Part shown: positions 1 to 39,398 of the stretch, one piece after another
Layout of the letters: the number at the start of each line of letters is the position of its first letter
Position numbering within the stretch: the first letter of the stretch is position 1
Virus record (IMG/VR): IMGVR_UViG_3300010167_000006
Location: 1-39,398 of that record
Source: a virus
DNA: 39,398 nucleotides
Direction: 5' to 3' (one strand)
Made by a program: the position numbers and the translations under genes
The notes under the pieces: generated by a model
The model's input: the letters and a program-made list of their open reading frames with translations, nothing else
Database searches by the model: none
Told to the model about the DNA's origin: nothing

Positions 1-123
1 TCGGCGCTCGGGCACGAACGCGGCGCGGGCATCGGCCGCACGAATTGGGAAACAGAGTATTATCCGGACAGGATGAGCAGGATAAAAAAGGCGGAATACG
101 ATGATATCCATTTTCGCAGTGAA
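1..123. repeat. Terminal direct repeat, identical to 39276..39398 (circularisation overlap or terminal redundancy)
   Basis: tcggcgctcgggcacgaacg...ccattttcgcagtgaa read at both ends with no mismatch. Confidence 0.95.
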
Positions 124-153
124 AAAACAGGAAACGCTGGTGAAGATGAATGA
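1..153 (+). CDS. 3' end of the PAPS-reductase-family gene that starts at 38637 (wraps the circular junction), stop TGA 151-153
   Basis: Position 1 corresponds to 39276, which is in frame with ATG 38637. The frame stays open to TGA at 151. Confidence 0.8.
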   Translation, partial: SALGHERGAGIGRTNWETEYYPDRMSRIKKAEYDDIHFRSEKTGNAGEDE

Positions 154-1214: not shown

Positions 1215-1694
1215 ATGAACAATAATAATATCAACGCTTTGTTAATATGGCTCGATGAGATCAATATGTTATATGACGTTTCGACTCCGGGTGAATGGTT
1301 TGTAAAAGACGGTAAAATCGTTACAAACTCCGGATACGAAATCGCCGGAAGCGTCGGCCTTGTTGAGGACGCCGAATTCATCGTCAGCGCGAGATCGAAC
1401 GTACACACTTTGATGGATACGATTCGAACACAGCACGAAAAAATATGTCAAATACAAAAATCCCTTAAAGACCAAAACATCGTAAACGAAATTATACTTA
1501 TGGCTGAAAATTTGCTCGAAGATACAAATGAGCTTCATAAAGACCTTAAAAAATTTATCAATAAAACATCCGTCTTATCCGGAGTGAATAAAACGGCGTA
1601 TACTGCAGGCAGCGAACGCCCGAAAATTACGCGTAAACCCCGCGTCGCTAAAAGCGTTTCATCGCATCGCGTTCCGCCGAAAGGCGGCGATTGA
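1215..1694 (+). CDS. Hypothetical early protein (possibly Ead/Ea22-like)
   Basis: ORF starts immediately after the previous stop and its end overlaps the next start (ATGA-type coupling at 1691). The TPGEW motif is only weakly suggestive. Confidence 0.5.
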   Translation: MNNNNINALLIWLDEINMLYDVSTPGEWFVKDGKIVTNSGYEIAGSVGLVEDAEFIVSARSNVHTLMDTIRTQHEKICQIQKSLKDQNIVNEIILMAENLLEDTNELHKDLKKFINKTSVLSGVNKTAYTAGSERPKITRKPRVAKSVSSHRVPPKGGD

Positions 1695-2269
1695 TGAACA
1701 CCGTCCAACCGATCCGGAGCAAGGCGCAGGTCCGGGACATCGCGGATTACCTGTTATCGTACAGTAAACGCGATTACATACTTTTTATGTTTGGCATATA
1801 CTCCGGCCTGCGGATATCCGACATCCTCCCCTTAAAAGCCCGCGACGTGCGAAACCGCAACCGCCTGACAATCCGCGAAAAAAAAACCGCGAAAGAAAAG
1901 GCGGTTTTTTTAAATGCGGAGCTACAAAAGGCTTTAAAACCTTACGTAGAAAATCTTAACGATTGGGATTATCTTTTTCCGAGTCGACAGCAAGCGAGTC
2001 GCACGAGCAAGGACAAGAACGCGAGGCCCCTCACCCGCCAACGCGCGATCCAGATACTCAAGGCCGCGGCAGCCCGTTTCGGCGTTGAGGACGTCGGGAC
2101 TCATACACTCCGTAAAACCTTTGGTTATCATATGTATAACGACACCAAAGACATCGCAACGTTGCAAACGATCTTTAACCACGCGTCGCCGTTGGTCACG
2201 CTGCGGTATATCGGGATCGACCAGGACCGAAAGGATAATCTCGTAAAAAATTTCAGTTTTACAAAATGA
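1691..2269 (+). CDS. Small tyrosine recombinase, catalytic domain only (192 aa)
   Basis: GLRISD (Arg I), HTLRKTFGYH (H-x-x-R), NHASPLVTLRYIG (His...Tyr nucleophile). No N-terminal core-binding domain. Confidence 0.7.
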   Translation: MMNTVQPIRSKAQVRDIADYLLSYSKRDYILFMFGIYSGLRISDILPLKARDVRNRNRLTIREKKTAKEKAVFLNAELQKALKPYVENLNDWDYLFPSRQQASRTSKDKNARPLTRQRAIQILKAAAARFGVEDVGTHTLRKTFGYHMYNDTKDIATLQTIFNHASPLVTLRYIGIDQDRKDNLVKNFSFTK

Positions 2270-11231: not shown

Positions 11232-11621
11232 ATGGACCTTGTGGAATATTTTGAGGTGAAACTGAAAAAAATCGGGCTGCCGATCAAGTACCTTATCCGC
11301 CTGAAGCCGCCTTGCGTTTGTTTTGAGATATTCGACGAACAGGGCGCGCTTTTCGGCGACGGGACGGAAAAGGTAACTTCCGGCAGGCTGCAAGTGGATA
11401 TATTTTCGGCCAAAGCCAGCGATATGCGGGGTTTGCGAAAAAAAGCGATAAAGGCGGTGCTTGGGGAAGAAGAAGACGAAAATGTCAAAGCTTCCGAAAC
11501 CCTCGAAATTGTGATAATGAAGTCATATCCGGACGAAACGAAGTTTGAAGACGACGTGAAACTGTACCACCACGTCGTTGTTTTTAATTTTGAATATCTA
11601 ACCGAAAGCGAGGTTATATGA
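11232..11621 (+). CDS. Tail completion / tail terminator-like protein
   Basis: Position immediately upstream of the major tail protein; 129 aa. Confidence 0.5.
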   Translation: MDLVEYFEVKLKKIGLPIKYLIRLKPPCVCFEIFDEQGALFGDGTEKVTSGRLQVDIFSAKASDMRGLRKKAIKAVLGEEEDENVKASETLEIVIMKSYPDETKFEDDVKLYHHVVVFNFEYLTESEVI

Positions 11622-12298
11622 TGGACGATAAGACAAATCCGGGGTTTAGGATCAACGTAAAAAAAATGACGTTGTTCCCCCTTATAGAAGATTCGGAAGG
11701 GCAGGAAACGACGTACTCGGAGAAACCGGACACAATACCCGGAACTATGCAGCTGACCATAAAACCGAATCTGACCAGCGGAAAGCTGTACGGGGACGGC
11801 CATGTAAGGGACGAGCAGAACGTCGTCATGTCGTTGGATATAGATGTGGAGCACAATAAATGGCCATTGTCGTTAGTCGCGAAATACTCCGGCAGCGATA
11901 TTATAAAACACGGAGTACGAACTAACGTAAGCGACCAGCCTATAAATTTCGCGATGGGCTACTGCGTGGAACTGACCGGCGGAGGGGAAGAACTGACTTG
12001 GCTGTATAAGTGCAAGATCGCGCCGAGTGATAAAAACGCGCAGCAAAGGACCGAGAGTATAAATTATTCGACCGACAGATGGATCATAAAAGCTTTGCCC
12101 CTGGAGTATAACGGGGATATCAAATTTACAGTAGACACTTCGGACCCCGAAATGGGATTCACGACAGAAATGGCTAAAACATGGTTGGACGAGGTGCATG
12201 TCCTGCCGCCGAAGGGCGAGGAAACCGATCCGCCGGAAAGATACGCGACCGGACAAACGTCCGGACAAACGTCCGATAACGCCAAGATCGACGAGTAA
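11618..12298 (+). CDS. Major tail (tube) protein
   Basis: Position upstream of the chaperone pair and tape measure; 226 aa; no sheath gene present. Confidence 0.65.
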   Translation: MMDDKTNPGFRINVKKMTLFPLIEDSEGQETTYSEKPDTIPGTMQLTIKPNLTSGKLYGDGHVRDEQNVVMSLDIDVEHNKWPLSLVAKYSGSDIIKHGVRTNVSDQPINFAMGYCVELTGGGEELTWLYKCKIAPSDKNAQQRTESINYSTDRWIIKALPLEYNGDIKFTVDTSDPEMGFTTEMAKTWLDEVHVLPPKGEETDPPERYATGQTSGQTSDNAKIDE

Positions 12299-12306
12299 GC
12301 AGCCGG

Positions 12307-12708
12307 GTGCGAAAGGATATGACAGATAAAATGGCTAAAAGATTTGCGGTTAGGCCGGTGGAGCCTCTTATACTGGAGTTTGCGGACGGGACTGTCAAGG
12401 AGGCGGCGCTGACAAACGAAGCGTTGATGATTTTATTCGAGGAATTCGGCGATTTGGGCGATTTACTGGAATCCGAGATGACCAAGCCAATGGATTTTGC
12501 CGCGAAGATATTATACGCGGCGATGAAAGTGATGGATACCACGGTCACGCTGGAGATGGCCAAGACCGTGGTGCTGGGCGGCGGCGTGGAGTTGATGATG
12601 CAGGTATACGACATGTTTTCAGATAACCTCGGCACCATGTCCGAGGACGAGTTAAAAAAAAACTTGACGCCGATAGTGAACAAATACCTCAAAAAATTGC
12701 GCCAATAG
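12307..12708 (+). CDS. Tail assembly chaperone (gpG-like)
   Basis: Acidic 133-aa protein directly upstream of the tape measure. Contains a slippery heptamer near its 3' end. Confidence 0.7.
   Translation: MRKDMTDKMAKRFAVRPVEPLILEFADGTVKEAALTNEALMILFEEFGDLGDLLESEMTKPMDFAAKILYAAMKVMDTTVTLEMAKTVVLGGGVELMMQVYDMFSDNLGTMSEDELKKNLTPIVNKYLKKLRQ
12654..12660 (+). promoter_or_regulatory. Programmed -1 ribosomal frameshift slippery site A_AAA_AAA
   Basis: tt(A AAA AAA)aac in the zero frame of 12307..12708. The -1 frame is open from here through ATG 12711 to 12914. Confidence 0.65.
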
Positions 12709-12710
12709 AC

Positions 12711-12914
12711 ATGGACGCGCTGTACTACATCTACTGCGTCGTTTTGGGACAGCCGGAAGTCAGTTTTTATAAAGGATCGCTTAAAAAAGTAATTTACATG
12801 ATAGACAGGCACGCGGAGAGACTCGGGTATAACCCGCAAGGGTATTATCCTGACGGCGAAAGAATCATCGACGTAAACAGCATGCGCGATATAGACGCGC
12901 ACATAAGGGGTTAA
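12711..12914 (+). CDS. gpT-like extension, probably made as a G-T fusion by -1 frameshifting (fusion 12307..12660/12660..12914)
   Basis: The frame is -1 relative to the upstream chaperone and has no stop between 12654 and 12914. Canonical location before the tape measure. Confidence 0.6.
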   Translation: MDALYYIYCVVLGQPEVSFYKGSLKKVIYMIDRHAERLGYNPQGYYPDGERIIDVNSMRDIDAHIRG

Positions 12915-12918
12915 AAGC

Positions 12919-15105
12919 ATGGCCGGATCGAAGGGTTATTCCCGGACAATTACAATAAATTTTGATTATACGCAGGTCACGGGCGGCGTCAAGGACGTCA
13001 ACAAGCAAATGGCGCTGCTGGATTCCGAATACCGAAAAGCGTCCGAAGGCGCAAAGCTGTACGGAGGCGCGTCAGAACAAACCGTTATAAAACAGGAAGC
13101 CCTTACGCAAAAAGTAGGCCTCCAGTCCATTAAAGTGGACGAACTGAGAAAAAAATACGAGGAATACTCCGAAAAACTGGGCGAAAGCAATAACACCACT
13201 ATTAACGCCAAGACGAGTTACAATAACGCGGAAGCCGCGCTCGAAAAATTGAAGAAGCAGTTGGAGGCGGCCAACCGGGAAGTCGAGAAACAAGAGGGTT
13301 TTGTAGGAAACGTTATAACGAAGTTTAACGATTTTAAAACGAAGGCGAACGAAGTCGGAATAGACGTAGACAAATTGGCGGACAGTTTTTTAAAGGCGGG
13401 CACCATGCTGACGGGTGTCGGTATTTTATCAGCCAAGATGGCGATGGATTTTGACACCGAAATGGGTAAGGTAAGCGCGGCGACAGGCAGAACGGGCGAC
13501 GATCTGGATAAGCTCAAGGACATCGTCTTGAACACGTCGGACAAATACGGGATTGCAGCCGGGGAAATGGCCGCGGCAGCGCAGCGCGTCGCGTGGGATT
13601 GGGAAAACGCCGGGGAGAAGCTGGACAACGCCGCGAGGCTGTCAACCGTCAGCACGTCAAGTATGGTGGACTCGGTGAAGCTGCTGGAATCCGTGGCGAC
13701 GGCGTACGGGTCCACAATAGACGAACAGACCCAACTGGTGGACAAATTGGTGGTGGCGTACCAGCGCGGCGAGTTTTCGATGGGCGAACTGGGGCAGAGT
13801 TTCGGTCGGGTCGCATCCATCGCGGCGGAATCCGGGGTATCGATAGACGAATTGCTAGCCATAATATCGTCCGCGACGAACGTCGGGGCATCGGCGAGCG
13901 AAGCCGTGACAGGATTGAGGCAAGTCATCAGCTCAATTGTAAAACCATCGGCTGAAGCTAAAAAAATGGCGGATGAGCTCGGGATAGAATTCGACGCGCA
14001 GGCGCTAAAAAGCAAGGGACTCGCCGGGGTTTTGGATACCGTGCGCGTGGCGACGCGGGGCAATACGGACGATATGGCTAAATTATTCGGAAACGTCAAC
14101 GCATTGGCGCAAATCATGTCTATAGCCGGCAGCGACAACGCTTATTACAAGGATTCGCTTTTATTAATAAAAGACGCGGCGGGCCAAACGGATACGGTGC
14201 TCGAGGCGATGAACACGCCCGCAAAACATTTAAATGACGCGATAAACAGGCTGAAAAACGCTTTTATCGATACTGGCGGATCGCTCCAATGGATAGTGGA
14301 GGTCGCGGCGAAATTATTAAATAGATTAGCCAGCATATCGCCCGCCGCGGTTAAAACCGGCACGGCGATAGGACTTTTGTTAGTTGTATTAGGCGGGGGA
14401 TTTAAAGTATTGACTACTATGTCGACCATGCTTCAAACGCTTGCTACATTAAAAATGTTTTTTACAAAGCAGGTCATCGCAAACACGACGGCGCAAACGT
14501 TCAACACCGCCGCAAATACGGCCAACTCGACAAGTCAGGTTGTCGGCGCGGCAACTGGTAAAGTTTTAACGACTACGAACACGATGCTGGGTATCAGCTT
14601 TCAAAGGTTATTGATACCGATGCTTATAATTTTGGCAATTATCGCCGCGATAGTCACGGCTTACATACTTTTAAGTAAAAAATCGAAAAACGCGGCGAAC
14701 GACGTATCCAATTCAAACGATGAAATCAGAAAATCCATGGAGGATACGCAAAATTATTGGAAATATCAATCCTCCTCAAATCGCGGAGGCATTACCGGCG
14801 CACCGCAATGGTCCGGTTACAGCAACGCCAGGGGCACGTCATATTCGCGGGGCGAGCGGTCGCTGGTGGGCGAAGAAGGCCCGGAGCTGGTGGACCTGCC
14901 GCAGGGGTCGCAGGTGAGAACGGCTGCAGTTACACGCGGGATGATGTATAACAGATCGCTTGCCGGGAATAAAAACGCGTCCGGATCGGAAATGGTGCAG
15001 AATAATTATCTACAGGTAAAATTTGAGGATATCGACCAGGTATATAAACTGACGCAGCTTTTTGAGGATTTTGCGCATAACGTGATAGTGGTCGAAGGAG
15101 TGTAA
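12919..15105 (+). CDS. Tail tape measure protein
   Basis: 728 aa; helical N-terminus, Ala/Gly-rich core, hydrophobic segments; canonical position. Confidence 0.85.
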   Translation: MAGSKGYSRTITINFDYTQVTGGVKDVNKQMALLDSEYRKASEGAKLYGGASEQTVIKQEALTQKVGLQSIKVDELRKKYEEYSEKLGESNNTTINAKTSYNNAEAALEKLKKQLEAANREVEKQEGFVGNVITKFNDFKTKANEVGIDVDKLADSFLKAGTMLTGVGILSAKMAMDFDTEMGKVSAATGRTGDDLDKLKDIVLNTSDKYGIAAGEMAAAAQRVAWDWENAGEKLDNAARLSTVSTSSMVDSVKLLESVATAYGSTIDEQTQLVDKLVVAYQRGEFSMGELGQSFGRVASIAAESGVSIDELLAIISSATNVGASASEAVTGLRQVISSIVKPSAEAKKMADELGIEFDAQALKSKGLAGVLDTVRVATRGNTDDMAKLFGNVNALAQIMSIAGSDNAYYKDSLLLIKDAAGQTDTVLEAMNTPAKHLNDAINRLKNAFIDTGGSLQWIVEVAAKLLNRLASISPAAVKTGTAIGLLLVVLGGGFKVLTTMSTMLQTLATLKMFFTKQVIANTTAQTFNTAANTANSTSQVVGAATGKVLTTTNTMLGISFQRLLIPMLIILAIIAAIVTAYILLSKKSKNAANDVSNSNDEIRKSMEDTQNYWKYQSSSNRGGITGAPQWSGYSNARGTSYSRGERSLVGEEGPELVDLPQGSQVRTAAVTRGMMYNRSLAGNKNASGSEMVQNNYLQVKFEDIDQVYKLTQLFEDFAHNVIVVEGV

Positions 15106-25738: not shown

Positions 25739-26905
25739 TTATCTATCGAACAATGTGTCACCGTTTTGTCCCCTTGGTTTGTTTTTAATGGTAAAATAAT
25801 CATTGATTTGTTCTGCGGCCCGGGTAAAAGATTCGTCAGAAATCGCCCGGTATCCGTCCGTCACGTCATAGGATTTGTGACCCATAAAAAATTTTTGCTC
25901 CCGTTCGTGGACCCCGGCGGCGTGGATGTCCGTCGCGTATGTGTGACGGAGGTAATGCGGCGTGATCTCGTCGGCAAACGGCGACGTTTCTATTAAAATT
26001 TTATTCCTGTACATTTTAGCGCCGGCGCTTATGTGGCATTGCCGTTTAAAAGAGTCCCACCACTCGCGGACAGTTGTGCCCGTCGCCCTCGACCCGTCCA
26101 CTTTCGTAAAAACATGATCCTCCGGATTTTTACCCAGACATTGTTTTTCCAAAAATGGTATCAATATATCTGGTATCGGCGTTTCCCTTACGCCCGCCTC
26201 CGACTTGGGTTGTTTCAGCGAACCTTGATTTGATCTGAATCTAACTGCTTTTTGTACCGATAGCCGTTTTTTCGCAAAATCGACATTTTCAACCTTCAAT
26301 GCCACGCATTCGCCGCGGCGAAGCCCGCACAAGATCATCGTCAGGACATACGCGCCGTGTTTATGGACCTGCGCGACGTTAAAAACGGTTTTGCATTCAA
26401 AATCCGTTAACGGTCTGCGGGGTTCCTCATCTAAATTTTCCGGCAAGTTCAATTTTTTCGCTGGGTTCATTTCTATGATTCCCTCCATTTCGGCGCAATC
26501 GAAAATCTGTCGGATCGCGATCCTTATTTTTATGACGGTGCCCTTTGCCTTTTTGGATTCATTTAATAGTTTCACCAGATGGGACGCCCGAACGTCTTTT
26601 ATCTGCATGTGGCCGATAACGGGTACGATGTCCAGCCTTACCTTCGCGGCAAAATGGGATTTTAAATCGTTGGAGGCGTTGGTTTTATACGTTACGAGCC
26701 ATCGATCGCACCATTCCGCGACCGTAATATTATCCGTCGAAACTCCTTTTTTATACAGACGCTTCGCTTCATCCACTTTTTTTAAAAACAAGTTATAGTT
26801 TTTATCGCGTACCGTGATCCGGTCCTGTTTACCGTTTAGCTTTTTTCCGACGACCCAGGTTTCGCGATAATATCCGTCTTTATTTCGCGTATACTTTGTT
26901 TTCAT
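25739..26905 (-). CDS. int: Phage integrase (tyrosine recombinase with N-terminal SAM-like/core-binding domain)
   Basis: 388 aa. GLRRGE, HYLRHTYATD and GHKSYDVTDGY catalytic motifs. Next to the tRNA-derived attP. Confidence 0.85.
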   Translation of the reverse strand: MKTKYTRNKDGYYRETWVVGKKLNGKQDRITVRDKNYNLFLKKVDEAKRLYKKGVSTDNITVAEWCDRWLVTYKTNASNDLKSHFAAKVRLDIVPVIGHMQIKDVRASHLVKLLNESKKAKGTVIKIRIAIRQIFDCAEMEGIIEMNPAKKLNLPENLDEEPRRPLTDFECKTVFNVAQVHKHGAYVLTMILCGLRRGECVALKVENVDFAKKRLSVQKAVRFRSNQGSLKQPKSEAGVRETPIPDILIPFLEKQCLGKNPEDHVFTKVDGSRATGTTVREWWDSFKRQCHISAGAKMYRNKILIETSPFADEITPHYLRHTYATDIHAAGVHEREQKFFMGHKSYDVTDGYRAISDESFTRAAEQINDYFTIKNKPRGQNGDTLFDR

Positions 26906-30055: not shown

Positions 30056-31105
30056 ATGGATTTTTTACGTCAGCTCGACGCGTTTTACGGCAGGATGGAG
30101 TACCGCGAACCGTTGACTTCGAGTGCTATCGCGCTCTATAGCGCGCTCTTGCAAGTAGATAGAAAACTCGGATGGCGGGAAACTTTCACTGCGTCGAATA
30201 AAACGCTGGAAGTCTTATCGGGATTATCCGGTATGTCCCTGCACAGGGCCAAGAACGAACTGGCCCGCAACGGGCTGCTTATCTATAAAGGGGGTAAAAA
30301 TCGGTATAAGGCGTCGTGGTACAGCCTGCCGGTTCTGTATGATACGGAATCCGGAGACGAAAACGGAGAAAATATTGTAGCGTCTCATATTGATACGGTA
30401 AACGATATGGTAAACGATATGGTAGACGATACGGTAAACGGTACGGTAGACGGTATGGTAAACGGTATGGTAAAAAAACCGGCTCCCGGAACGGCGGGCG
30501 ATGCCTATATCAAAAATAATATAAATAATAAAAAAAACAATAAAAACATAAATTTCAGTCATGTCAGTCATGTCAGTCAATCTTTGGATTTAGATCTAAA
30601 ACCGGACGGACAAAAACCCGACGGACGGGACGGACAGGACGGACAGAGTCCGGACGGACCATATCTGGACAAGGCGGATAATAACCAGAGAATCGTCGAA
30701 TCCGCCGGGGCGATCGTTTCGGACGTCCCGGACGACGCCGAAATGTCCCGGAAAATCGAGGATTACCGGGAGGCCGTCAAGGCCAACATCGAATATGACG
30801 GTTTGATAAACATATACCGCCACAAAACGGACCTTGTGGACGAGATCGTGGGGATCATCGTCGACACGAATTTTACCGAAAGGGCTTACTTTACCATTAA
30901 CCGCAGCTTTAAGCCGAAAGCGCTCGTAATTGATCAACTGTCAAAACTCACTTACAGCAACGTCGAGCTCGCGATCGACCAGTTTTTAGCCGTCGACGCG
31001 CCTATAAAAAACAAAAAGGGATACATCCTCACGACGCTGTACAACAGCGTGATGGAGACGGAGGCGCACTACTCCAATCTGTACGAGAGCAATAAATACA
31101 AATAA
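30056..31105 (+). CDS. Replication initiator / replisome organiser (N-terminal winged-helix, central repeat linker, conserved C-terminal domain)
   Basis: The N-terminus resembles DnaD/replisome-organiser HTH. Iterons and an AT-rich tract are embedded mid-gene. The C-terminus KKGYILTTLYNSV is DUF6017-like (recalled). Confidence 0.6.
   Translation: MDFLRQLDAFYGRMEYREPLTSSAIALYSALLQVDRKLGWRETFTASNKTLEVLSGLSGMSLHRAKNELARNGLLIYKGGKNRYKASWYSLPVLYDTESGDENGENIVASHIDTVNDMVNDMVDDTVNGTVDGMVNGMVKKPAPGTAGDAYIKNNINNKKNNKNINFSHVSHVSQSLDLDLKPDGQKPDGRDGQDGQSPDGPYLDKADNNQRIVESAGAIVSDVPDDAEMSRKIEDYREAVKANIEYDGLINIYRHKTDLVDEIVGIIVDTNFTERAYFTINRSFKPKALVIDQLSKLTYSNVELAIDQFLAVDAPIKNKKGYILTTLYNSVMETEAHYSNLYESNKYK
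30392..30475. repeat. Seven tandem 12-bp iterons (GRTAYGGTARAC), putative origin of replication
   Basis: gatacggtaaac gatatggtaaac gatatggtagac gatacggtaaac ggtacggtagac ggtatggtaaac ggtatggtaaaa. Followed by an AT-rich tract at about 30505-30555. Confidence 0.75.
30556..30582. repeat. Three tandem 9-bp repeats CAGTCATGT next to the AT-rich tract
   Basis: cagtcatgt cagtcatgt cagtcaatc, read directly. Confidence 0.85.
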
Positions 31106-33384: not shown

Positions 33385-33678
33385 TTGAAAACTTTCGGGA
33401 AGGAATTCCTTGCCGTGACAGATGCTGAAAAAATTAAAATGCTCGAAAAAATAACCGGAAAGAAGCCCCTCCACCGTCCCGACGGCAAAGAGACAATGCA
33501 GGAGCTCCACGGCGTACGTTCGGATAAAACGTGCAGGGAGTGCATACATTGCAAGAGATTGCTATACGGTAGGACGATTTACAAATGTGATTTATGGCAT
33601 GTTAACCACAGCCAAAAAACGGACATTAGGGTAACCGGCCCGGCCTGCGGGAAATTTAAGCCGCATGAGATAAAATAA
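33385..33678 (+). CDS. Hypothetical Cys-rich protein
   Basis: CRECIHC...C...C pattern. Immediately upstream of the cysH-like gene. Confidence 0.45.
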   Translation: MKTFGKEFLAVTDAEKIKMLEKITGKKPLHRPDGKETMQELHGVRSDKTCRECIHCKRLLYGRTIYKCDLWHVNHSQKTDIRVTGPACGKFKPHEIK

Positions 33679-33696: not shown

Positions 33697-35025
33697 GTGT
33701 TTATCTCTTTTAAAGAGCTTGAGCGCGAACAGGCGCAAGGCCTCGACTATAAAATAGCCTCCGCGGTTTCCGCGATACAAAAAGCGTACGGCGTCAGCAA
33801 ACACCGCGCCGCGATAGCGTTTTCCGGCGGCAAGGACTCGACCGTACTGTGGCACTTGATACGCACTAATTTCCCGGAGCAAGCTGCGAAAACTTACGTT
33901 ATCTATGGCAATACTGGCGTCGAGTATCCGGAGTGCCTCCGTTTCGCCCGCGCTCTCGGTAAAAACTGGGGACCGGGACTGTTTCACGAGGCGCACCCGG
34001 AAAAAACCGACACCTTCGGCCTTAAATACAAGGCGCAGAAAGCCGTATTGGATCATGTCGCGGAAACAGGACGACTCGGCGAGATACTCAAGCCCGACGG
34101 AAAGCTCAAAAGCACGTCCGCGCTCGAAAACGTCTGCCCGGCGGATATGATGGAAAAATTCGCAAGCGAAAAACTCGTCTGGCCGGTAGGCACGCGCAAA
34201 ACTTATTGGTGGTGCGTAGATCAATACGGCTGGCCCCTGCTCGGCAAGGCGGCGTCGATGCTCAAAGCCCGGCGGATAAATATTGATTGTTTTTTAAAAT
34301 ATTCGAATAGCGCGAGCGAAAAAGGGAAACTTTTGGCATATTACAAACTGCTCAAGCGTGTGAAATTTTCCCAGGCATGCTGCGATATACTCAAAAAGGA
34401 GCCGTCGGAGAAGCTGCAGGCCGAGTTAGACGTCGACGTGGTTTTCAAGGGCCTAATGGCCTCGGAGAGCAGATCGCGGCAGACGAACTTCGTCACCCGA
34501 GGGTATCTGTTTGAGTCGACCCGTGAACATTTACAGGGCGACAGTTTTTGGCATTGCAACCCGATGTCTATTTGGACGGATGACGATGTATGGGCGTACA
34601 TCCGCCGGTTCGGCGTGCCGTACTCGACGCTGTACGACATGGGTTACACCGACGCCGGCGGCGTCTGCCGAAAAATCAAGCGCAACGGCTGTATGGGCTG
34701 CGGTACGGATTTAATGTACCCAAATAATCATATGTCCATGCTCCGCCGGACTCATCCGAAACAATGGGACGCCTTCATGCGGCTTGGGATGGCCGCGGAG
34801 ATACAAAATTTACAGATTGAAAAACGTAACGGGCAGATGTCTATTTTCGACTTCGCGGCCGCGAATCCGGACCACGCGGATGAGGTTATCGGGCGGATCA
34901 TAGACGAGAGACCCTGCGTTTTCGACCGTATCGACAGATTAGTAATTGATGATGAGATGTGGCCCGGCGAAACGCCGGAGTATGACCCGGAGGTGGGGGA
35001 GGAAAGGATGATAAAACTCACATGA
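33697..35025 (+). CDS. cysH: PAPS reductase-family / CysH-like PP-loop enzyme (442 aa)
   Basis: AFSGGKDSTVLWHL PP-loop, YGNTGVEYPE and MASESRSRQ motifs. C-terminal Cys cluster CRKIKRNGCMGCG. GTG start. ATGA coupling to the next gene. Confidence 0.75.
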   Translation: MFISFKELEREQAQGLDYKIASAVSAIQKAYGVSKHRAAIAFSGGKDSTVLWHLIRTNFPEQAAKTYVIYGNTGVEYPECLRFARALGKNWGPGLFHEAHPEKTDTFGLKYKAQKAVLDHVAETGRLGEILKPDGKLKSTSALENVCPADMMEKFASEKLVWPVGTRKTYWWCVDQYGWPLLGKAASMLKARRINIDCFLKYSNSASEKGKLLAYYKLLKRVKFSQACCDILKKEPSEKLQAELDVDVVFKGLMASESRSRQTNFVTRGYLFESTREHLQGDSFWHCNPMSIWTDDDVWAYIRRFGVPYSTLYDMGYTDAGGVCRKIKRNGCMGCGTDLMYPNNHMSMLRRTHPKQWDAFMRLGMAAEIQNLQIEKRNGQMSIFDFAAANPDHADEVIGRIIDERPCVFDRIDRLVIDDEMWPGETPEYDPEVGEERMIKLT

Positions 35026-35726
35026 CCGCGTCCGAACTTTTTGCCGGGCCGGAGCGCAACCCGGGCCCGAACGTTTGCTACTACTGCGGCGCGCCCTGCG
35101 ACGATACTTATCTGACAAAAACTTACGTGCGGGACACGTTTACCAACCGGGACGTCGTCAAGTACCCATCGTCCGATCACGTGTGCCGGGGCTGCGTCCT
35201 GTCCATGGGCGACGGATGGGAGAACATGCCGATGCTGGACGGGAGCGTCAAGGGATTCGACCCGCAGACGACGAATCCGCGCAGCCTCGCGCCGAGGTTG
35301 TACTCCTGGCTGATTTCGGTCGAAAAACGTCTCGCTTTTACCAAAGCCCATATCGGGTTGATACGCGGGATCCTCACGGAGCCTGATAAACTTCCGGAGC
35401 CGCCCTTTACGGTTGTGCTGACCGACAGCGGACAAAAGCAGCTAATCTTTCGCGCGCCGGTCGCGCTCAAAAAAGACGCTTTCGAAGTGATGTTAGAGGA
35501 TCAAGCGATAGAGATAACGCCCGAAAAATTGAGCACGCGGCTACGCACCGCGAATCAGATATCGACGAAACTTGGTAAACCTATATTGTCGTCGCACATA
35601 AATATGAACACATATATCGCAGCGCGCAAATGGCATTTGGAACCTTTTCTTAACGAATGGCAGGCGCTGCGTAACGAGCCGTTGTCCCGGCTCGCGGCAT
35701 GGCTGGCGGAACCTAAAGAAAAATAA
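35022..35726 (+). CDS. csf1: Csf1-like (Cas8-like large subunit of type IV) zinc-finger protein
   Basis: N-terminal CYYCG...(38 aa)...CRGC zinc ribbon; 234 aa; position upstream of the Cas11/Cas7/Cas5-like genes. Confidence 0.45.
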   Translation: MTASELFAGPERNPGPNVCYYCGAPCDDTYLTKTYVRDTFTNRDVVKYPSSDHVCRGCVLSMGDGWENMPMLDGSVKGFDPQTTNPRSLAPRLYSWLISVEKRLAFTKAHIGLIRGILTEPDKLPEPPFTVVLTDSGQKQLIFRAPVALKKDAFEVMLEDQAIEITPEKLSTRLRTANQISTKLGKPILSSHINMNTYIAARKWHLEPFLNEWQALRNEPLSRLAAWLAEPKEK

Positions 35727-35740
35727 TGGGAGGCAAACGC

Positions 35741-35899
35741 ATGAAAATAATTGGACACATTGATTTTACACCGGTCGAAAATTGCAAAAACCCCGATACA
35801 TACGGTTATATTTGCGTTAAGTGCAATGATTGCGGGCGGTTTGATTCAAACGGAACTTTAAAATCGGAATCTAAAATAAAAGAGGAGGAGTGCACATGA
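35741..35899 (+). CDS. Small Cys-containing ORF (52 aa) inside the operon
   Basis: GGGAGG RBS 7 nt upstream. CVKCNDC motif. Its stop overlaps the next ATG (ATGA at 35896-35899). Below the ORF-track size cut-off. Confidence 0.4.
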   Translation: MKIIGHIDFTPVENCKNPDTYGYICVKCNDCGRFDSNGTLKSESKIKEEECT

Positions 35900-36402
35900 T
35901 CCAATTTTCCGCGGAGCAGTTTCGTCAACGCCTCGCCGGGTTGGAATCCCCCGAACGGCGTTTCGACGAGGACGAGATCGAGGACATGAAGACGGTAGCC
36001 GTCCTGATGATACGGGCGCTGCGCGACGTCTTCGGGGATTCGCTCGACCGTAAGACGGTTTGGGAGCGCATATCGGGAGGTATCGTCGTCGCCGCCGCGA
36101 AAACCGGCGGAAGCCAGTTTTCCATAGGCGACAAATTCATCGCGGCCCTGCTGGATCACGTTAAGGCAAGCGCCAACGCGGTGGTGGGCAGCGACAACCT
36201 AAAAGCCGCGACGGCGGCGGTCAATCAAATGTCCAGGGACGGACAAAGGCAGTTTATCCGGACATGCGTCGAGTACCGTATGATCCTTTGCCTGGAGGCG
36301 CGCGAATCAGTGCTGCTGGAAAGCGCCGGCAAAACGGCGAGGATCCCAGACGTCAATCCCCTAAAAACCGGCGAAGAAGAGGAGGCGGAAGGCGATGCAT
36401 GA
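35896..36402 (+). CDS. cas11: Cas11-like small subunit (predicted all-helical, 168 aa)
   Basis: Size, helix-favouring composition, and position between the Csf1-like and Cas7-like genes. Overlaps the next gene by 8 nt. Confidence 0.4.
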   Translation: MIQFSAEQFRQRLAGLESPERRFDEDEIEDMKTVAVLMIRALRDVFGDSLDRKTVWERISGGIVVAAAKTGGSQFSIGDKFIAALLDHVKASANAVVGSDNLKAATAAVNQMSRDGQRQFIRTCVEYRMILCLEARESVLLESAGKTARIPDVNPLKTGEEEEAEGDA

Positions 36403-37486
36403 GATAAAAACGGTGAAACTCCATGCGCTCTCCACGGCGCTGTCCCCACTGACGCACATGCAGGGCAATCAAGGCAACGAGGCGGTTATCAACCGCACGC
36501 GCGTCATGTACGTGGGCAGGGTTTGCGAGGTCCCGGCGTTGTCCGGCAACGCGATCCGGCACAAGATGGTCCGCGAACCCGGCGCCAATTTTTTGGTCAT
36601 GGAGTGCGGCTTGTACGGTAAGCTCAATATCGACCAGGCCAATTTTCTTTTTTACGGCGGAAGCCTGACGGAAAGCGCGATTTCGGACAACCTCGGAAAA
36701 ATCGCCGCGATGCAGGAGTTACTGCCACTCTACCGCCTGCTGGGCGGCAGCTTGAAAAACCAGGTGCTGGCCGGCAGCTTATTGGTCGGGATGGGAACGC
36801 TTATATGCGAGGAAAACCGGGACGTCCTGGAAAAATCGCTGCCGGAGGAATTGATTTACGGGATGCCGGAACTGCGCTCCTGCGAAGACTACGTCTCCGG
36901 GTACCAGTACACAAGGGGGGATGCTGCGAAACGTCCGGATTTACTCGCGACGGATATCTGCGACGCCGATGGGCGCGAAAAGTCCAACCAAATGATATAT
37001 GCGGGCCAGCACGTGATACCGGGCGCTGTTTTTTATCACAGGTTTATTTTACAAAACGTCAACCGTATTGAAGTCGGCGCGCTGTACGCGGCGCTCTTGG
37101 ACTGGGGCGCGAACGACGGCACCATGGGCGGGTCGGGGCGGATCGGGCACGGCAGCATTAAAACGGAGATATATGCCGATGGTACAAATTTTTTCGGCGA
37201 CGAGTTGGACCTAAAGGCTTACGCAGACGAATACCGCGAATATGTCAGGGACCATAAAAACGGCATAATCGCCTGGCTTAACGAAGCTTTCCCCGTATAC
37301 GACAGGGCGGCTAAGGCAAAAGCGAAACCGGCGGGGAAAACCGGCAGGAAAACCGGCGATCCGGTGAATACGCAATCGGACGCAGCTTTTGATACGTCCG
37401 CGGATCTATCCATGGAAAAATTTGCTTCGCAAATGGATTTTTTTGACGCCGCGGACTCTTTACCCGACGCGGATACGGAGGCATAA
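36395..37486 (+). CDS. csf2: Csf2 / Cas7-family RAMP backbone subunit
   Basis: Motifs LSTALSPLTH, PALSGNAIRHKMVRE, FLFYGGSL, LYRLLGGSL and the glycine-rich GGSGRIGHGSI, arranged as in Cas7 RAMPs; 363 aa. Confidence 0.6.
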   Translation: MHEIKTVKLHALSTALSPLTHMQGNQGNEAVINRTRVMYVGRVCEVPALSGNAIRHKMVREPGANFLVMECGLYGKLNIDQANFLFYGGSLTESAISDNLGKIAAMQELLPLYRLLGGSLKNQVLAGSLLVGMGTLICEENRDVLEKSLPEELIYGMPELRSCEDYVSGYQYTRGDAAKRPDLLATDICDADGREKSNQMIYAGQHVIPGAVFYHRFILQNVNRIEVGALYAALLDWGANDGTMGGSGRIGHGSIKTEIYADGTNFFGDELDLKAYADEYREYVRDHKNGIIAWLNEAFPVYDRAAKAKAKPAGKTGRKTGDPVNTQSDAAFDTSADLSMEKFASQMDFFDAADSLPDADTEA

Positions 37487-37489
37487 GCG

Positions 37490-38227
37490 ATGGGCGATTC
37501 GCATGGAAGGCATCCCCTCAAAAATTGGCTCGTTTCGGCGTGGCTGTCGACGCCGTTGTGCGGCGACCCGCCGCAGTTGGACGCCGTCCTGCAATGGGAG
37601 ATGGCCAACCGCCTGGGCCTTAAGCACGCCAAAAAAACCGGCAGGTGGACGCCGCCGGATGAGATCGAGGACGTGCCTATTAGCCTCGCGAAACGTACAG
37701 TCAACGGCAGGGACATACATTGTTGCAGTTCGCCCATCATCCCGCCTTTATATGCGCAGGAAGCCGGTTATATCGAAAAAATACCATCCGAGTGGGTGGA
37801 CCATACGGGCAAGCGTTTCGAATCGGCGAAAATGGCCGGGATAATAGCGCCGGAATACCGAAAATCGGTATTGACCGCCTCCGGACCGTATAAGCAAAGG
37901 TTCGTCCCGGAGCGCGTGCGGCTCGTACCGCGGGTTTGTTGGTTCCTCCGGGGAGACCGCGAGGGGATAAATAAACTGCTTATCCGGATTTATGCCTTGG
38001 GCCGACACAGGTCGATAGGGTACGGAGCGGTTTGGAAATGGACTTTTGACGAGGTCGCGAATGATTATTCTATTTTTACGCCGTGTAACGGCAAAATAAT
38101 ACTTATGAGGATTTTACCCGTTGGCGAGGATCTCAACAACGTTTGCGGGTACAGGCTTTCGTTCGGCGGATACCGTGCGCCGTACTGGCACCCGGCGTAT
38201 CAAACCGAGGTCGCGGTGCCTTGTTGA
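37490..38227 (+). CDS. csf3: Csf3 / Cas5-family RAMP subunit
   Basis: N-terminal LSTPLCGDPPQLDAVL and C-terminal glycine-rich loop ALGRHRSIGYGAV; 245 aa; 3-nt gap after the Cas7-like gene. Confidence 0.5.
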   Translation: MGDSHGRHPLKNWLVSAWLSTPLCGDPPQLDAVLQWEMANRLGLKHAKKTGRWTPPDEIEDVPISLAKRTVNGRDIHCCSSPIIPPLYAQEAGYIEKIPSEWVDHTGKRFESAKMAGIIAPEYRKSVLTASGPYKQRFVPERVRLVPRVCWFLRGDREGINKLLIRIYALGRHRSIGYGAVWKWTFDEVANDYSIFTPCNGKIILMRILPVGEDLNNVCGYRLSFGGYRAPYWHPAYQTEVAVPC

Positions 38228-38661
38228 GGACGGGGAAAAACGACCACGGACCCATACACGCGGCGAAGGTATGCGTCCTATGCGCTTTGCTCGGGGCAAA
38301 ATTGGAGCTTCCGATCGACAACATTTATATACTGATGTTCGCGGCGATCGCACACGATTCCGGCAGGACCGATAATAAGGACGACAGGAAACACGGGGCC
38401 TTGGGCGTAAAAACCCTTCTCTTCGCGGACATGGAAACGACGAGGGATTTGGTCGCACTGCATTCGCAGCCGGACTCGTATATTAACAAAATCGCCTCGG
38501 AAGAAATAGAATCACTCGCGATGATATTTAAGGACGCCGACGTGCTGGACAGGGTCCGAACCGGCGACCTGGAAGAAAAATACCTCCGGACGGACGAGGC
38601 CAAAAGCCTCGTCCGGTTCGCGCGGGAGTTGAATTTATGCTTATCGAAAGTGACCGATTGA
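38221..38661 (+). CDS. HD-domain metal-dependent phosphohydrolase
   Basis: IHAAKV...AAIAHDSGR...RKHGALG...FKDADVLDRV (H, HD, H, D). Start uncertain: TTG 38221/38224 overlapping the csf3-like stop, or ATG 38143. Confidence 0.6.
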   Translation: MLRTGKNDHGPIHAAKVCVLCALLGAKLELPIDNIYILMFAAIAHDSGRTDNKDDRKHGALGVKTLLFADMETTRDLVALHSQPDSYINKIASEEIESLAMIFKDADVLDRVRTGDLEEKYLRTDEAKSLVRFARELNLCLSKVTD

Positions 38662-39398
38662 CGGACGCCGATCGTTATCACTGGTACCAAATGCTTGAGC
38701 TGGACGAACTGCATTCCCGGACAGGTATGTACAAAACGCACGTTAAATTAACTATGGAAATAATTGTAAAGTTTATTGAAAAGAACCTGAACTACTATGT
38801 CGCCGTCTCCTGGGGTAAAGACAGCGTCGTTTTAGCCCATATGTTCCATTTTGCCAGCGCGAAATGCAAATATTACTATCTGCACAACATTTTTAGGGAA
38901 ACTGAAGGCTGCCTTGCTGTTCGGAATGAATTTTTAAGCAGATATCCGATCGAATACGAGGAAATCGTATACAATTACGCCGAAGCCGACGAAACCTATT
39001 TCGACTTAAAGGGAAGGCCCGCGAAATGGTACAACATCAGAAAAGGCTTGCATAAAAAACACGATATACACGTGACGGGTGTCAGAAGCGACGAAAGCGC
39101 GGAACGGAGGATGCGTTTTAAATATTTCGGGCTGGAAACGGAAAAAACCTTCGCGCCGTTTATGCATATGGAAGCGCGGGACATTTTCGCATATCTGTTG
39201 GTTAACGATTTGCCCACCCACCCGAATTACGCCATGACCGGCGGCGGCAGGTGGGACAAATACAGGATTCGAGTTTCGGCGCTCGGGCACGAACGCGGCG
39301 CGGGCATCGGCCGCACGAATTGGGAAACAGAGTATTATCCGGACAGGATGAGCAGGATAAAAAAGGCGGAATACGATGATATCCATTTTCGCAGTGAA
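38637..39398 (+). CDS. Second PAPS reductase-family PP-loop protein (continues to 153 across the junction, 264 aa in total)
   Basis: VAVSWGKDSVVLAHM PP-loop and VTGVRSDESAERR motifs. Overlaps the HD gene by 25 nt. Open to the window end. Confidence 0.7.
   Translation, partial: MLIESDRLTDADRYHWYQMLELDELHSRTGMYKTHVKLTMEIIVKFIEKNLNYYVAVSWGKDSVVLAHMFHFASAKCKYYYLHNIFRETEGCLAVRNEFLSRYPIEYEEIVYNYAEADETYFDLKGRPAKWYNIRKGLHKKHDIHVTGVRSDESAERRMRFKYFGLETEKTFAPFMHMEARDIFAYLLVNDLPTHPNYAMTGGGRWDKYRIRVSALGHERGAGIGRTNWETEYYPDRMSRIKKAEYDDIHFRSE
39276..39398. repeat. Terminal direct repeat, identical to 1..123
   Basis: Read directly, 123/123 identity. Confidence 0.95.

Follow-up and report, generated by a model that had tools for sequence, protein, structure and literature searches.

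Among the widespread class 1 CRISPR-Cas subtypes, type IV-B alone lacks a known function. Its loci are defined by csf1, cas11, csf2, csf3, and a cysH-like gene, and they have no CRISPR array, cas6, adaptation genes, or helicase (PMC7038947). They are found mainly on plasmids and "sometimes prophages," with Firmicutes included among the carriers (PMC7038947), and reports of type IV systems extend to lytic phages and to a virus of archaea (PMC10848311). In the IV-B system of Mycobacterium sp. JS623, Csf2 and Cas11 form a type III-like filament on heterogeneous non-CRISPR RNA of ~55 to 60 nucleotides (nt); this complex, in which Csf1 and Csf3 were not resolved, ignores co-expressed type I-E CRISPR RNAs (crRNAs) (PMC7937560). 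Here we analyze the virus record IMGVR_UViG_3300010167_000006 from IMG/VR, a stretch of 39,398 nt that is referred to throughout, at its full length, as the window. A tightly coupled string of genes that begins at position 33697 is almost certainly a type IV-B CRISPR-Cas module without a CRISPR array, in the order csf1-cas11-csf2 (cas7)-csf3 (cas5) followed by a CysH-like gene. The central claim of an earlier note made from the sequence alone, that a temperate phage has an array-less type IV-B effector module embedded among its early/replication genes, therefore holds. The locus leaves the classification of the subtype unchanged.

Four divergent type IV-B subunits

Profile libraries (Pfam in a 2025 copy, NCBIfam, PADLOC, and PHROGs) were run on the module proteins, and full-length PADLOC type IV matches support the assignment of Csf1, Cas11, Cas7, and Cas5 that had been proposed. 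Csf1, a small Cas8-like large subunit of 234 amino acids (aa) encoded at 35022-35726 on the plus strand, as are all genes of the module, aligns over its full length (residues 2 to 233) with typeIV_Cas8 (PDLC01574; E = 3.4e-60). The type IV small subunit Cas11 (35896-36402; 168 aa, or 170 aa from an alternative start at 35890) matches typeIV_Cas11 (PDLC01573; 1.8e-21), and its gene lies directly upstream of cas7 in 41 loci. The backbone subunit Cas7, encoded by csf2 (36395-37486; 363 aa), matches typeIV_Cas7 at 4.4e-84 and phrog_22746 at 8e-70, while the type IV Cas5 encoded by csf3 (37490-38227; 245 aa) matches typeIV_Cas5 (PDLC01727) at 1.3e-31.

In NCBIfam, Csf1, Csf2, and Csf3 are the sole Cas matches for the second, fifth, and sixth open reading frames (ORFs) of the string. 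Csf1 scores 44 bits against TIGR03114 (1.6e-11), where the equivalog cut-off is 140, which marks it as a divergent member of its family; the four cysteines of its N-terminal zinc ribbon (C19/C22 and C55/C58) are conserved in 27 to 28 of 28 family members. The Csf2 match (6.6e-8) is likewise below the equivalog cut-off, as is that of Csf3 to TIGR03116 (5.2e-8), which is nearly full length (residues 27 to 239). Pfam (2025 copy) has no significant match for any of the four, which only the other three libraries detect, and sees only the 3'-phosphoadenosine-5'-phosphosulfate (PAPS)-reductase domain of the first ORF. A precomputed Pfam assignment places Csf3 in PF27782 (Csf3), and the Csf3 chain 7xfz_B is found in PDB at 0.0084.

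Structural comparison points the same way. A profile made from 33 Cas7 homologues finds Csf2 of 7jhy (5.5e-10) and "Cas7c" of 11fs (2.6e-13) among PDB sequences, and no IV-A Csf2 sequence at E <= 1; PDB sequence searches with Csf1, Cas11, and the HD and CysH-like proteins described below returned nothing meaningful. In a Foldseek search with the AlphaFold2 (AF2) model of Cas7 (predicted local distance difference test [pLDDT], 76.8), ranks 1 to 22 are all chains of type IV complexes (8rc3, 7xg1, and 7jhy; E from 1e-8 to 7e-11). The IV-A chains 8rc3 and 7xg1 score ~1e-10 and the IV-B chain 7jhy scores 1.2e-8, with type III Csm3 coming next. The C-terminal tail of ~60 aa is predicted to be disordered. 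The comparison on which the earlier note had staked its reading, that of the Cas7 and Cas5 candidates with known profiles and structures, thus found the expected similarity to repeat-associated mysterious protein (RAMP) subunits.

The operon continues across the assembly junction

Six ORFs of 442, 234, 52, 168, 363, and 245 aa had been described between 33697 and 38227, and all are present with those coordinates and sizes. So are the two ATGA overlaps, one at 35022 and the other, confirmed by direct reading, at 35896, the 8-nt overlap at 36395, the 3-nt gap at 37487-37489, and, in the translations, the motifs SGGKDS, CxxC...CxxC, PALSGNAIRHKMVRE, LYRLLGGSL, GGSGRIGHGSI, and LGRHRSIGYGAV. An operon end at 38227 proved too short, as co-oriented, overlapping HD and CysH-like genes continue downstream. 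The gene for an HD-domain phosphohydrolase (Pfam HD; 38221-38661, plus strand; 146 aa) overlaps the csf3 stop by 7 nt, its TTG start being part of the TTGTTGA that holds this stop. The CysH-like gene (Pfam PAPS_reduct) in turn overlaps the end of the HD gene by 25 nt, and the first 254 of its 263 codons occupy 38637-39398 on the plus strand.

Alignment of the window ends shows the same 123 nt at positions 1-123 and 39276-39398, which makes the record a circular assembly with a true length of 39,275 bp. The same sequence exists as a 39,416-bp MEGAHIT contig with a 141-nt end overlap (ENA ERZ27257304, locus L009), on which the 263-aa CysH-like ORF can be read whole at 12243-13034. In the window, its 3' end lies at 1-153 (plus strand), where 1-123 duplicates 39276-39398; the reading frame hence runs through 38637-39398 and continues at 124-153, the stop codon ending at 153. 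A profile match over 1-153 assigns this segment to the CysH family. The assembly junction splits this gene, and a gene caller working on the linear record would miss or truncate it. The tightly coupled string therefore extends from 33697 over the junction to 153 and comprises the genes for a 442-aa PAPS reductase, Csf1, a 52-aa zinc-knuckle ORF, Cas11, Cas7, Cas5, the HD protein, and the CysH-like protein. The 125-nt gap that follows, considered as a noncoding RNA or terminator, folds no better than shuffled sequences (z = +1.25).

The CysH-like partner lies downstream of csf3

The earlier note had taken the 442-aa PP-loop ORF (33697-35025, plus strand; GTG start; Pfam PAPS_reduct) for the cysH-like accessory gene, an identification that was not borne out. 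The canonical IV-B CysH-like partner is the 263-aa gene downstream of cas5. Its product has a Pfam PAPS_reduct match (6.5e-9) and scores 350 bits against a profile of the Cas-linked CysH family, versus 62 bits for the 442-aa protein, and a CysH-like gene is syntenic after csf3 in ~27 distinct related loci. Among 22 family members, the PP-loop S-W-G-K-D-S is near-invariant (S, G, K, D, and S in 22/22 and W in 20/22), and a C-terminal Cys is not conserved. Published Cas-associated CysH proteins have a PAPS-reductase fold and an SGGxDS/T-type PP-motif and lack the catalytic C-terminal cysteine (PMC8175902), and the 263-aa protein fits this description by its domain, its PP-loop, and the missing conserved cysteine. 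A tblastn search of plasmids with the CysH-like protein gave one weak match without annotation. Correcting the operon boundaries thus places the true partner downstream, across the window junction.

Synteny, stand-alone phage homologues, profile score, and BLASTP all led us to reject the 442-aa ORF for this role. The protein matches PAPS_reduct (5.5e-25) and phrog_424 (4.8e-34) and is barely alignable with the 263-aa protein (BLASTP E = 0.16). By tblastn, it finds "PAPS reductase" genes in 41 phage records, mainly of Bacillus and Clostridium phages without csf genes, and stand-alone PAPS reductases of Ruminococcus phages are among the matches. This genome is the only one of ~40 loci in which such a gene lies upstream of csf1; in L007, the closest relative with a long contig, a 410-aa homologue is encoded 6.5 kb from csf1. 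By homology and gene context, it is therefore a generic PAPS reductase of Firmicutes phages that happens to be ATGA-coupled to csf1 here. Neither protein resembles assimilatory CysH closely, the NF002537 scores being 59 bits for the 442-aa and 23.7 bits for the 263-aa protein, with a cut-off of 154.

A clade with an exchangeable signature enzyme

Public data contain 292 homologues, mostly on unannotated metagenomic contigs of 35 to 85 kb, and relatives come from termite-gut and other metagenome-assembled genomes (MAGs). We collected 49 loci encoding Cas7 relatives and searched the ORFs of each with profiles for which the proteins of the window had served as seeds. The order csf1-cas11-cas7-cas5-CysH-like, with zero or one small gene before the CysH-like gene (230 to 280 aa), is conserved in ~27 distinct loci. 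A blastn comparison of the 4.5-kb module with 50,697 phage records gave no match. With Cas7 as a tblastn query, Skermania phage SPI1 was the sole phage record matched, and there were five distant plasmid matches.

Six distinct loci lack the CysH-like gene and have, in its place, one or two genes for B12-binding (class B) radical SAM enzymes. These lie directly after csf3 in L003 (11654-14250), L008 (8819-10054), L012 (7227-8576), L017 (7945-9396), and L019 (7594-10304), while in L014 (7833-9074) a slot gene stands between. On a rough neighbor-joining tree of Cas7, computed without support values, the radical SAM loci interleave with the CysH-like loci, which suggests several exchanges of the enzyme within the clade. 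No paper linking IV-B with radical SAM enzymes was found in the literature searched. One of these loci, L003, is a prophage in a Peptococcaceae MAG; a sigma-70-family gene directly precedes its csf1, and an AcrVA2-like gene (PF26125; 14586-15596, minus strand) lies immediately downstream of its Csf/radical SAM module.

A second variable position is the slot between csf3 and the enzyme gene. Slot genes start 7 nt before the csf3 stop and encode HD proteins, SpoU/TrmL-like proteins, small helix-turn-helix (HTH) proteins, or proteins of no recognized kind. An ORF resembling SpoU/TrmL-type RNA 2'-O-methyltransferases occupies the slot, ahead of the CysH-like gene, in L023 (7555-7977) and L026 (7540-8019), with a Pfam SpoU_methylase match (1.4e-6) just below the cut-off. 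These loci expose a large, unannotated, and mainly phage-borne IV-B clade whose signature enzyme, CysH-like or radical SAM, is exchangeable, and the swap and the slot genes are clues toward nucleic-acid or nucleotide modification rather than cleavage.

The conservation seen in this clade also bears on whether the module is no more than the remnant of a CRISPR-Cas system that the phage acquired and that has lost its function and is decaying. Such a remnant might be expected to look as the module does in having no array, adaptation genes, or nuclease. Yet none of its genes is broken, their start and stop codons overlap, and the public homologues are numerous. Cas7 keeps 52 invariant columns across 33 sequences that are 44 to 69% identical to the window protein, and conservation likewise extends to the cysteines of the Csf1 zinc ribbon, to the PP-loop, and to the residues of the HD protein. 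We regard decay as very improbable.

The HD protein and the small cysteine-rich ORF

The slot gene of the window encodes an HD protein that scores 24.0 bits against Pfam HD, with a gathering cut-off of 22. Its catalytic motif H...HD...H...H...D and the motif KDADxLDRxR are invariant; H45, D46, H58, H81, K104, D105, D107, R111, and R113 do not vary among 28 to 29 sequences. Word-indexed homologue searches with this protein and with the 52-aa ORF returned essentially the query alone. An exhaustive HMMER search found 642 HD relatives, the ~10 closest being stand-alone proteins of 133 to 148 aa. Three of these close relatives were located, on contigs L050 to L052, and in all three the HD homologue shows the same 7-nt and 25-nt overlaps and follows csf3 or a csf3-sized gene (cut in L052), and the gene after it is a called PAPS_reduct gene in L052, an arrangement repeated in L007. 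An HD gene between csf3 and a downstream PAPS_reduct/CysH-like gene is thus present in five independent loci (the window, L007, and L050 to L052).

The AF2 model of the HD protein (pLDDT, 92.6) has as its nearest folds 2pq7, YpgQ, the PPX/GppA C-domain, HD-GYP proteins, and phosphodiesterases, all of them weak matches (E >= 0.012), and no Cas3 or Cas10 HD nuclease occurs among its top 50 fold neighbors. We rejected on these neighbors the idea of a Cas3- or Cas10-like nuclease, which would have made the locus IV-C-like. Sequence and model together indicate a small HD phosphohydrolase subfamily dedicated to IV-B loci.

The 52-aa ORF (35741-35899, plus strand; 57 aa from an alternative upstream ATG at 35726) is inserted between csf1 and cas11 and is rich in Cys (C...CxxCxxC). 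A GGGAGG Shine-Dalgarno sequence lies 7 nt upstream of its ATG, and an ATGA joins its stop codon to the start codon of cas11. It has one homologue, 77% identical, on another contig, is missing from the other loci examined, and matches no family in Pfam, NCBIfam, PADLOC, or PHROGs. Just upstream of the 442-aa gene, window 33385-33678 holds another Cys-rich ORF (97 aa; CRECIHC...C...C) without a family match or a homologue in the other loci.

No array or guide-processing gene accompanies the module

That the genome carries no CRISPR array, as claimed earlier, was confirmed by TRF, a repeat finder, and a k-mer scan, none of which found CRISPR-like interspaced repeats anywhere in the circular sequence; these searches cover the phage genome and not that of its host. 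Rfam has no match in the window, and no tRNA was found. Among the 25 of 32 PADLOC families listed for the 39 further ORFs there is no Cas6/Csf5, Cas1, Cas2, Cas4, DinG, or RecD, only methyltransferase, HTH, RmrA, and PD-Lambda-5_B. The only Cas matches of the ORFs in the module itself are to type IV effector models. Likewise, neither this genome nor 52 related loci contain an array, a mini-array, or cas6. A conserved guide-like RNA in the csf3-CysH-like gaps of relatives was considered and rejected, as every such gap contains a coupled protein ORF. On the viral contig L032, whose Csf2 is distant (27% identity), two copies of a 42-nt sequence that contains a palindrome (11280-11321 and 11378-11419) are spaced 98 nt apart, ~3 kb downstream of csf3; this could be a mini-array or merely a repeat.

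These findings weigh on the published proposal (PMC7038947, PMC8175902) that the complex scavenges guides, that is, loads crRNAs made by a CRISPR-Cas system of the host or by a co-resident one and then binds or silences competing plasmids, phages, or host genes, much as nuclease-independent IV-A does. The module does encode a full Cascade-like set, including homologues of Cas5 and of the large subunit that normally read the crRNA handle and the target, and the fold of its Cas7 is nearest to crRNA-bound IV-A Csf2. But the module and its relatives come without arrays or cas6, the Mycobacterium IV-B complex took up no co-expressed I-E crRNAs (PMC7937560), and IV-B co-occurs negatively with other CRISPR systems (PMC7038947). 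As scavenging would also leave the obligatory enzyme partner and the radical SAM swap unexplained, we consider it unlikely and prefer a complex that acts through its coupled enzyme, as set out below.

Genomic context suggests probable lytic expression

The window is the genome of a temperate siphophage, as is evident from its tyrosine integrase, its divergent HTH repressor-like genes, and its genes for terminase, portal, major head protein, tape measure, and tail proteins. It also encodes a DnaD-like replication protein, a ParB-like protein, and a D12-class Dam methyltransferase. Among cultured phages, the closest large terminase subunits (TerL; ~37% identity) are those of Bacillus and Geobacillus phages, and by this relationship the host is probably a member of the Bacillota.

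The module lies in the rightward replication/DNA-modification block, bordered by the ParB-like and Dam genes at one end and by a Lar-like anti-restriction gene at the opposite end, in line with the previous claim that it adjoins DNA-modification genes in the early region. The strong promoter-like sites are concentrated around the switch between lysis and lysogeny at 27 kb; none precedes the module, and a consensus scan found no convincing plus-strand terminator inside it. In L001, L005, L007, and L008, the module also lies amid replication and DNA-methylase genes. From this embedding and the lack of a strong promoter or terminator of its own, we infer that the module is expressed early in the lytic program and that its role is in counter-defense or in conflict between elements, as opposed to host immunity. 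The gene that immediately follows it (278-904) codes for 208 aa; the protein ends in a Lar-like restriction-alleviation zinc ribbon (phrog_599; 1.8e-6), and its N-terminal part contains a P-loop-like segment, GYQGIGKST. It is another anti-restriction-type gene flanking the Cas module.

The same surroundings can be read as those of a pure RNA sponge or anti-CRISPR (Acr), in which the filament soaks up host guide RNAs non-specifically and the enzymes are dispensable passengers. This published idea (PMC7038947, PMC8175902) suits a phage-borne, early-region module beside anti-restriction-type genes, a homologous complex that binds RNA irrespective of sequence (PMC7937560), and the AcrVA2-like neighbor of the L003 module. 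It does not suit the enzymes. An enzyme gene in translational coupling with csf3 is retained in nearly all loci, the invariance of the PP-loop and of the catalytic residues in the HD protein indicates selection on these proteins, and a stoichiometric sponge of four subunits would be costly next to known Acrs, an argument also made in PMC7038947. A sponge without working enzymes accordingly has little probability in our estimate.

Defense of the host by the prophage, the lysogen being protected against superinfecting phages or plasmids as by Dnd or BREX type 4, would fit the temperate lifestyle, and the Cas origin of the module is consistent with it. In L003, moreover, the module sits at the prophage end behind its own sigma-factor gene. 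The 442-aa protein is weakly BrxP-/DndC-like, but these PADLOC matches are restricted to the PP-loop region, its DndC score (TIGR03183) is 28 bits against a cut-off of 290, and a PADLOC scan of the window found no dndBDE or brx partner genes among the families listed. The genes of the module run co-directionally with the surrounding replication/methylase block, in the window as well as in L001, L005, L007, and L008, and no strong promoter or terminator belongs to the module itself in the window. The same module is found in Skermania phage SPI1, and type IV systems are reported in lytic phages (PMC10848311). Immunity of the lysogen is thus improbable, and a role in the lytic program remains the reading that we favor.

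A filament that may carry a modifying enzyme

Loading of host crRNA, competition, counter-defense, and modification, the functions suggested in the earlier note, have all been put forward for IV-B in the literature as hypotheses. We propose, by homology with the Mycobacterium system, that Cas7 and Cas11 would polymerize on non-CRISPR RNA of ~55 to 60 nt, with Csf3 and Csf1 capping the filament. Having no nuclease of its own, the filament would act as a nucleic-acid-binding platform for the enzyme encoded behind csf3. In this phage, that enzyme would be a CysH-like protein of ATP-pyrophosphatase (adenylating) type without a redox cysteine, aided by an HD phosphohydrolase of nucleotide type; in relatives, a B12-dependent radical SAM enzyme would take the place of the CysH-like protein, and a SpoU-like RNA methyltransferase could fill the slot that follows csf3. 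RNA, or else a nucleotide or DNA target, would in this way be chemically modified or sequestered and not cleaved. We favor this model because a nuclease-free filament is nearly always coupled to an enzyme of a modifying class. We hold the mechanism to be a possibility more than a probability; identity and mechanism taken jointly form an explanation that we judge reasonably probable.

Several points weigh against this interpretation. The physical link between filament and enzyme is deduced solely from the order and overlap of their genes, and a 2024 review lists the target and mechanism of IV-B as unknown (PMC11127173). Binding of heterogeneous RNA was seen after heterologous expression, with Csf1 and Csf3 unresolved, so that a specific natural RNA is possible (PMC7937560). 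HD and SpoU-like genes occupy the slot in a minority of loci, and the HTH genes found there suggest that it is in part a regulatory or cargo hot spot. The Cas7 tree behind the enzyme exchanges has no support values. As to expression, the scans for promoters and terminators give matches to a consensus and no more, and the L003 module stands in a moron-like position, after the lysis genes and behind a sigma-factor gene.

A wider and rather doubtful extension of the model would make the Csf filament of this clade a generic RNA-binding chassis for interchangeable enzymes that modify nucleotides or nucleic acids. Type IV-B would then be a system of RNA-templated or RNA-directed modification, used by phages against host defenses and not for interference, and the HD and CysH-like proteins might form a two-step adenylation/hydrolysis module acting on filament-bound RNA.

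Other features of the phage genome

An integrase of 388 aa is encoded at 25739-26905. It is distinct from a second, short gene of the Phage_integrase family (191 aa; 1691-2269, plus strand), which lies between the Cas module and the terminase gene. Within the DnaD-like replication gene, window 30392-30474 holds ~7 copies of a 12-nt tandem repeat, GATATGGTAAAC, encoding the repeated peptide (D/N)(M/T)V(N/D); it may be an iteron-like origin sequence embedded in the initiator gene. In the PADLOC scan of ORFs outside the module, one ORF matches PD-Lambda-5_B (3e-17) and one matches several RmrA models (down to 3.9e-9).

Comparison with known systems

The locus is a divergent example of type IV-B, and the occurrence of IV-B on phages and prophages has already been published. 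Its closest characterized counterpart is the IV-B system on the Mycobacterium JS623 megaplasmid (PDB 7JHY; Zhou et al. 2021, PMC7937560), which has the same gene set and likewise no array, cas6, adaptation genes, or helicase. The two are very divergent, with 14% identity in the Foldseek alignment, and the module described here is carried by a 39-kb temperate phage instead of a megaplasmid. It has in addition the HD gene between csf3 and the cysH-like gene, the 52-aa ORF between csf1 and cas11, and the long PAPS reductase coupled to csf1.

Type IV-A (7XG1 and 8RC3), in which Csf proteins are joined by DinG, Cas6/Csf5, and an array, provides the best structural matches for Cas7 (E ~1e-10) and a weakly similar Csf3. 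DinG, Cas6, and a CRISPR array were not found in the window, and Cas11 is present. The difference from type IV-C is in the large subunit, which is Csf1 here and not a Cas10-like protein with a fused HD domain; the HD domain of this module is a separate 146-aa protein. As for the upstream gene, the 442-aa ORF shares the PAPS_reduct domain and the SGGKDS PP-loop with DndC/BrxP and with the stand-alone PAPS reductases of phages (phrog_424). The stand-alone genes occur without csf genes, whereas this one is ATGA-coupled to csf1.

IV-B loci described on phages and prophages (Pinilla-Redondo et al. 2020, PMC7038947) and in the archaeal "Fuxiviridae" (PMC10848311) combine the same effector and CysH-like protein on viral genomes, and counter-defense and inter-mobile genetic element conflict have likewise been proposed as their roles. 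The Fuxivirus locus has a two-repeat mini-array and another gene order; no repeat accompanies the module here. The present clade is bacterial, in contrast to the archaeal Fuxivirus, and is distinguished by the swapping of CysH-like for radical SAM enzymes.

Skermania phage SPI1 (KR011061.1; L053, 2840-6473) offers a comparison among cultured phages. Its Orf40 to Orf44, all annotated as "hypothetical protein," constitute a IV-B module in which csf1, cas11, csf2, and csf3 are colinear with those of the window (PADLOC 2e-28, 6e-15, 1e-66, and 2e-36, respectively). Orf44, a 239-aa PP-loop protein encoded after csf3, is 25% identical to the 263-aa CysH-like protein over its full length (E = 9e-8). 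SPI1 is an actinophage, and it has neither the HD gene nor the long upstream PAPS reductase. It is a cultured phage in which type IV-B could be tested genetically.

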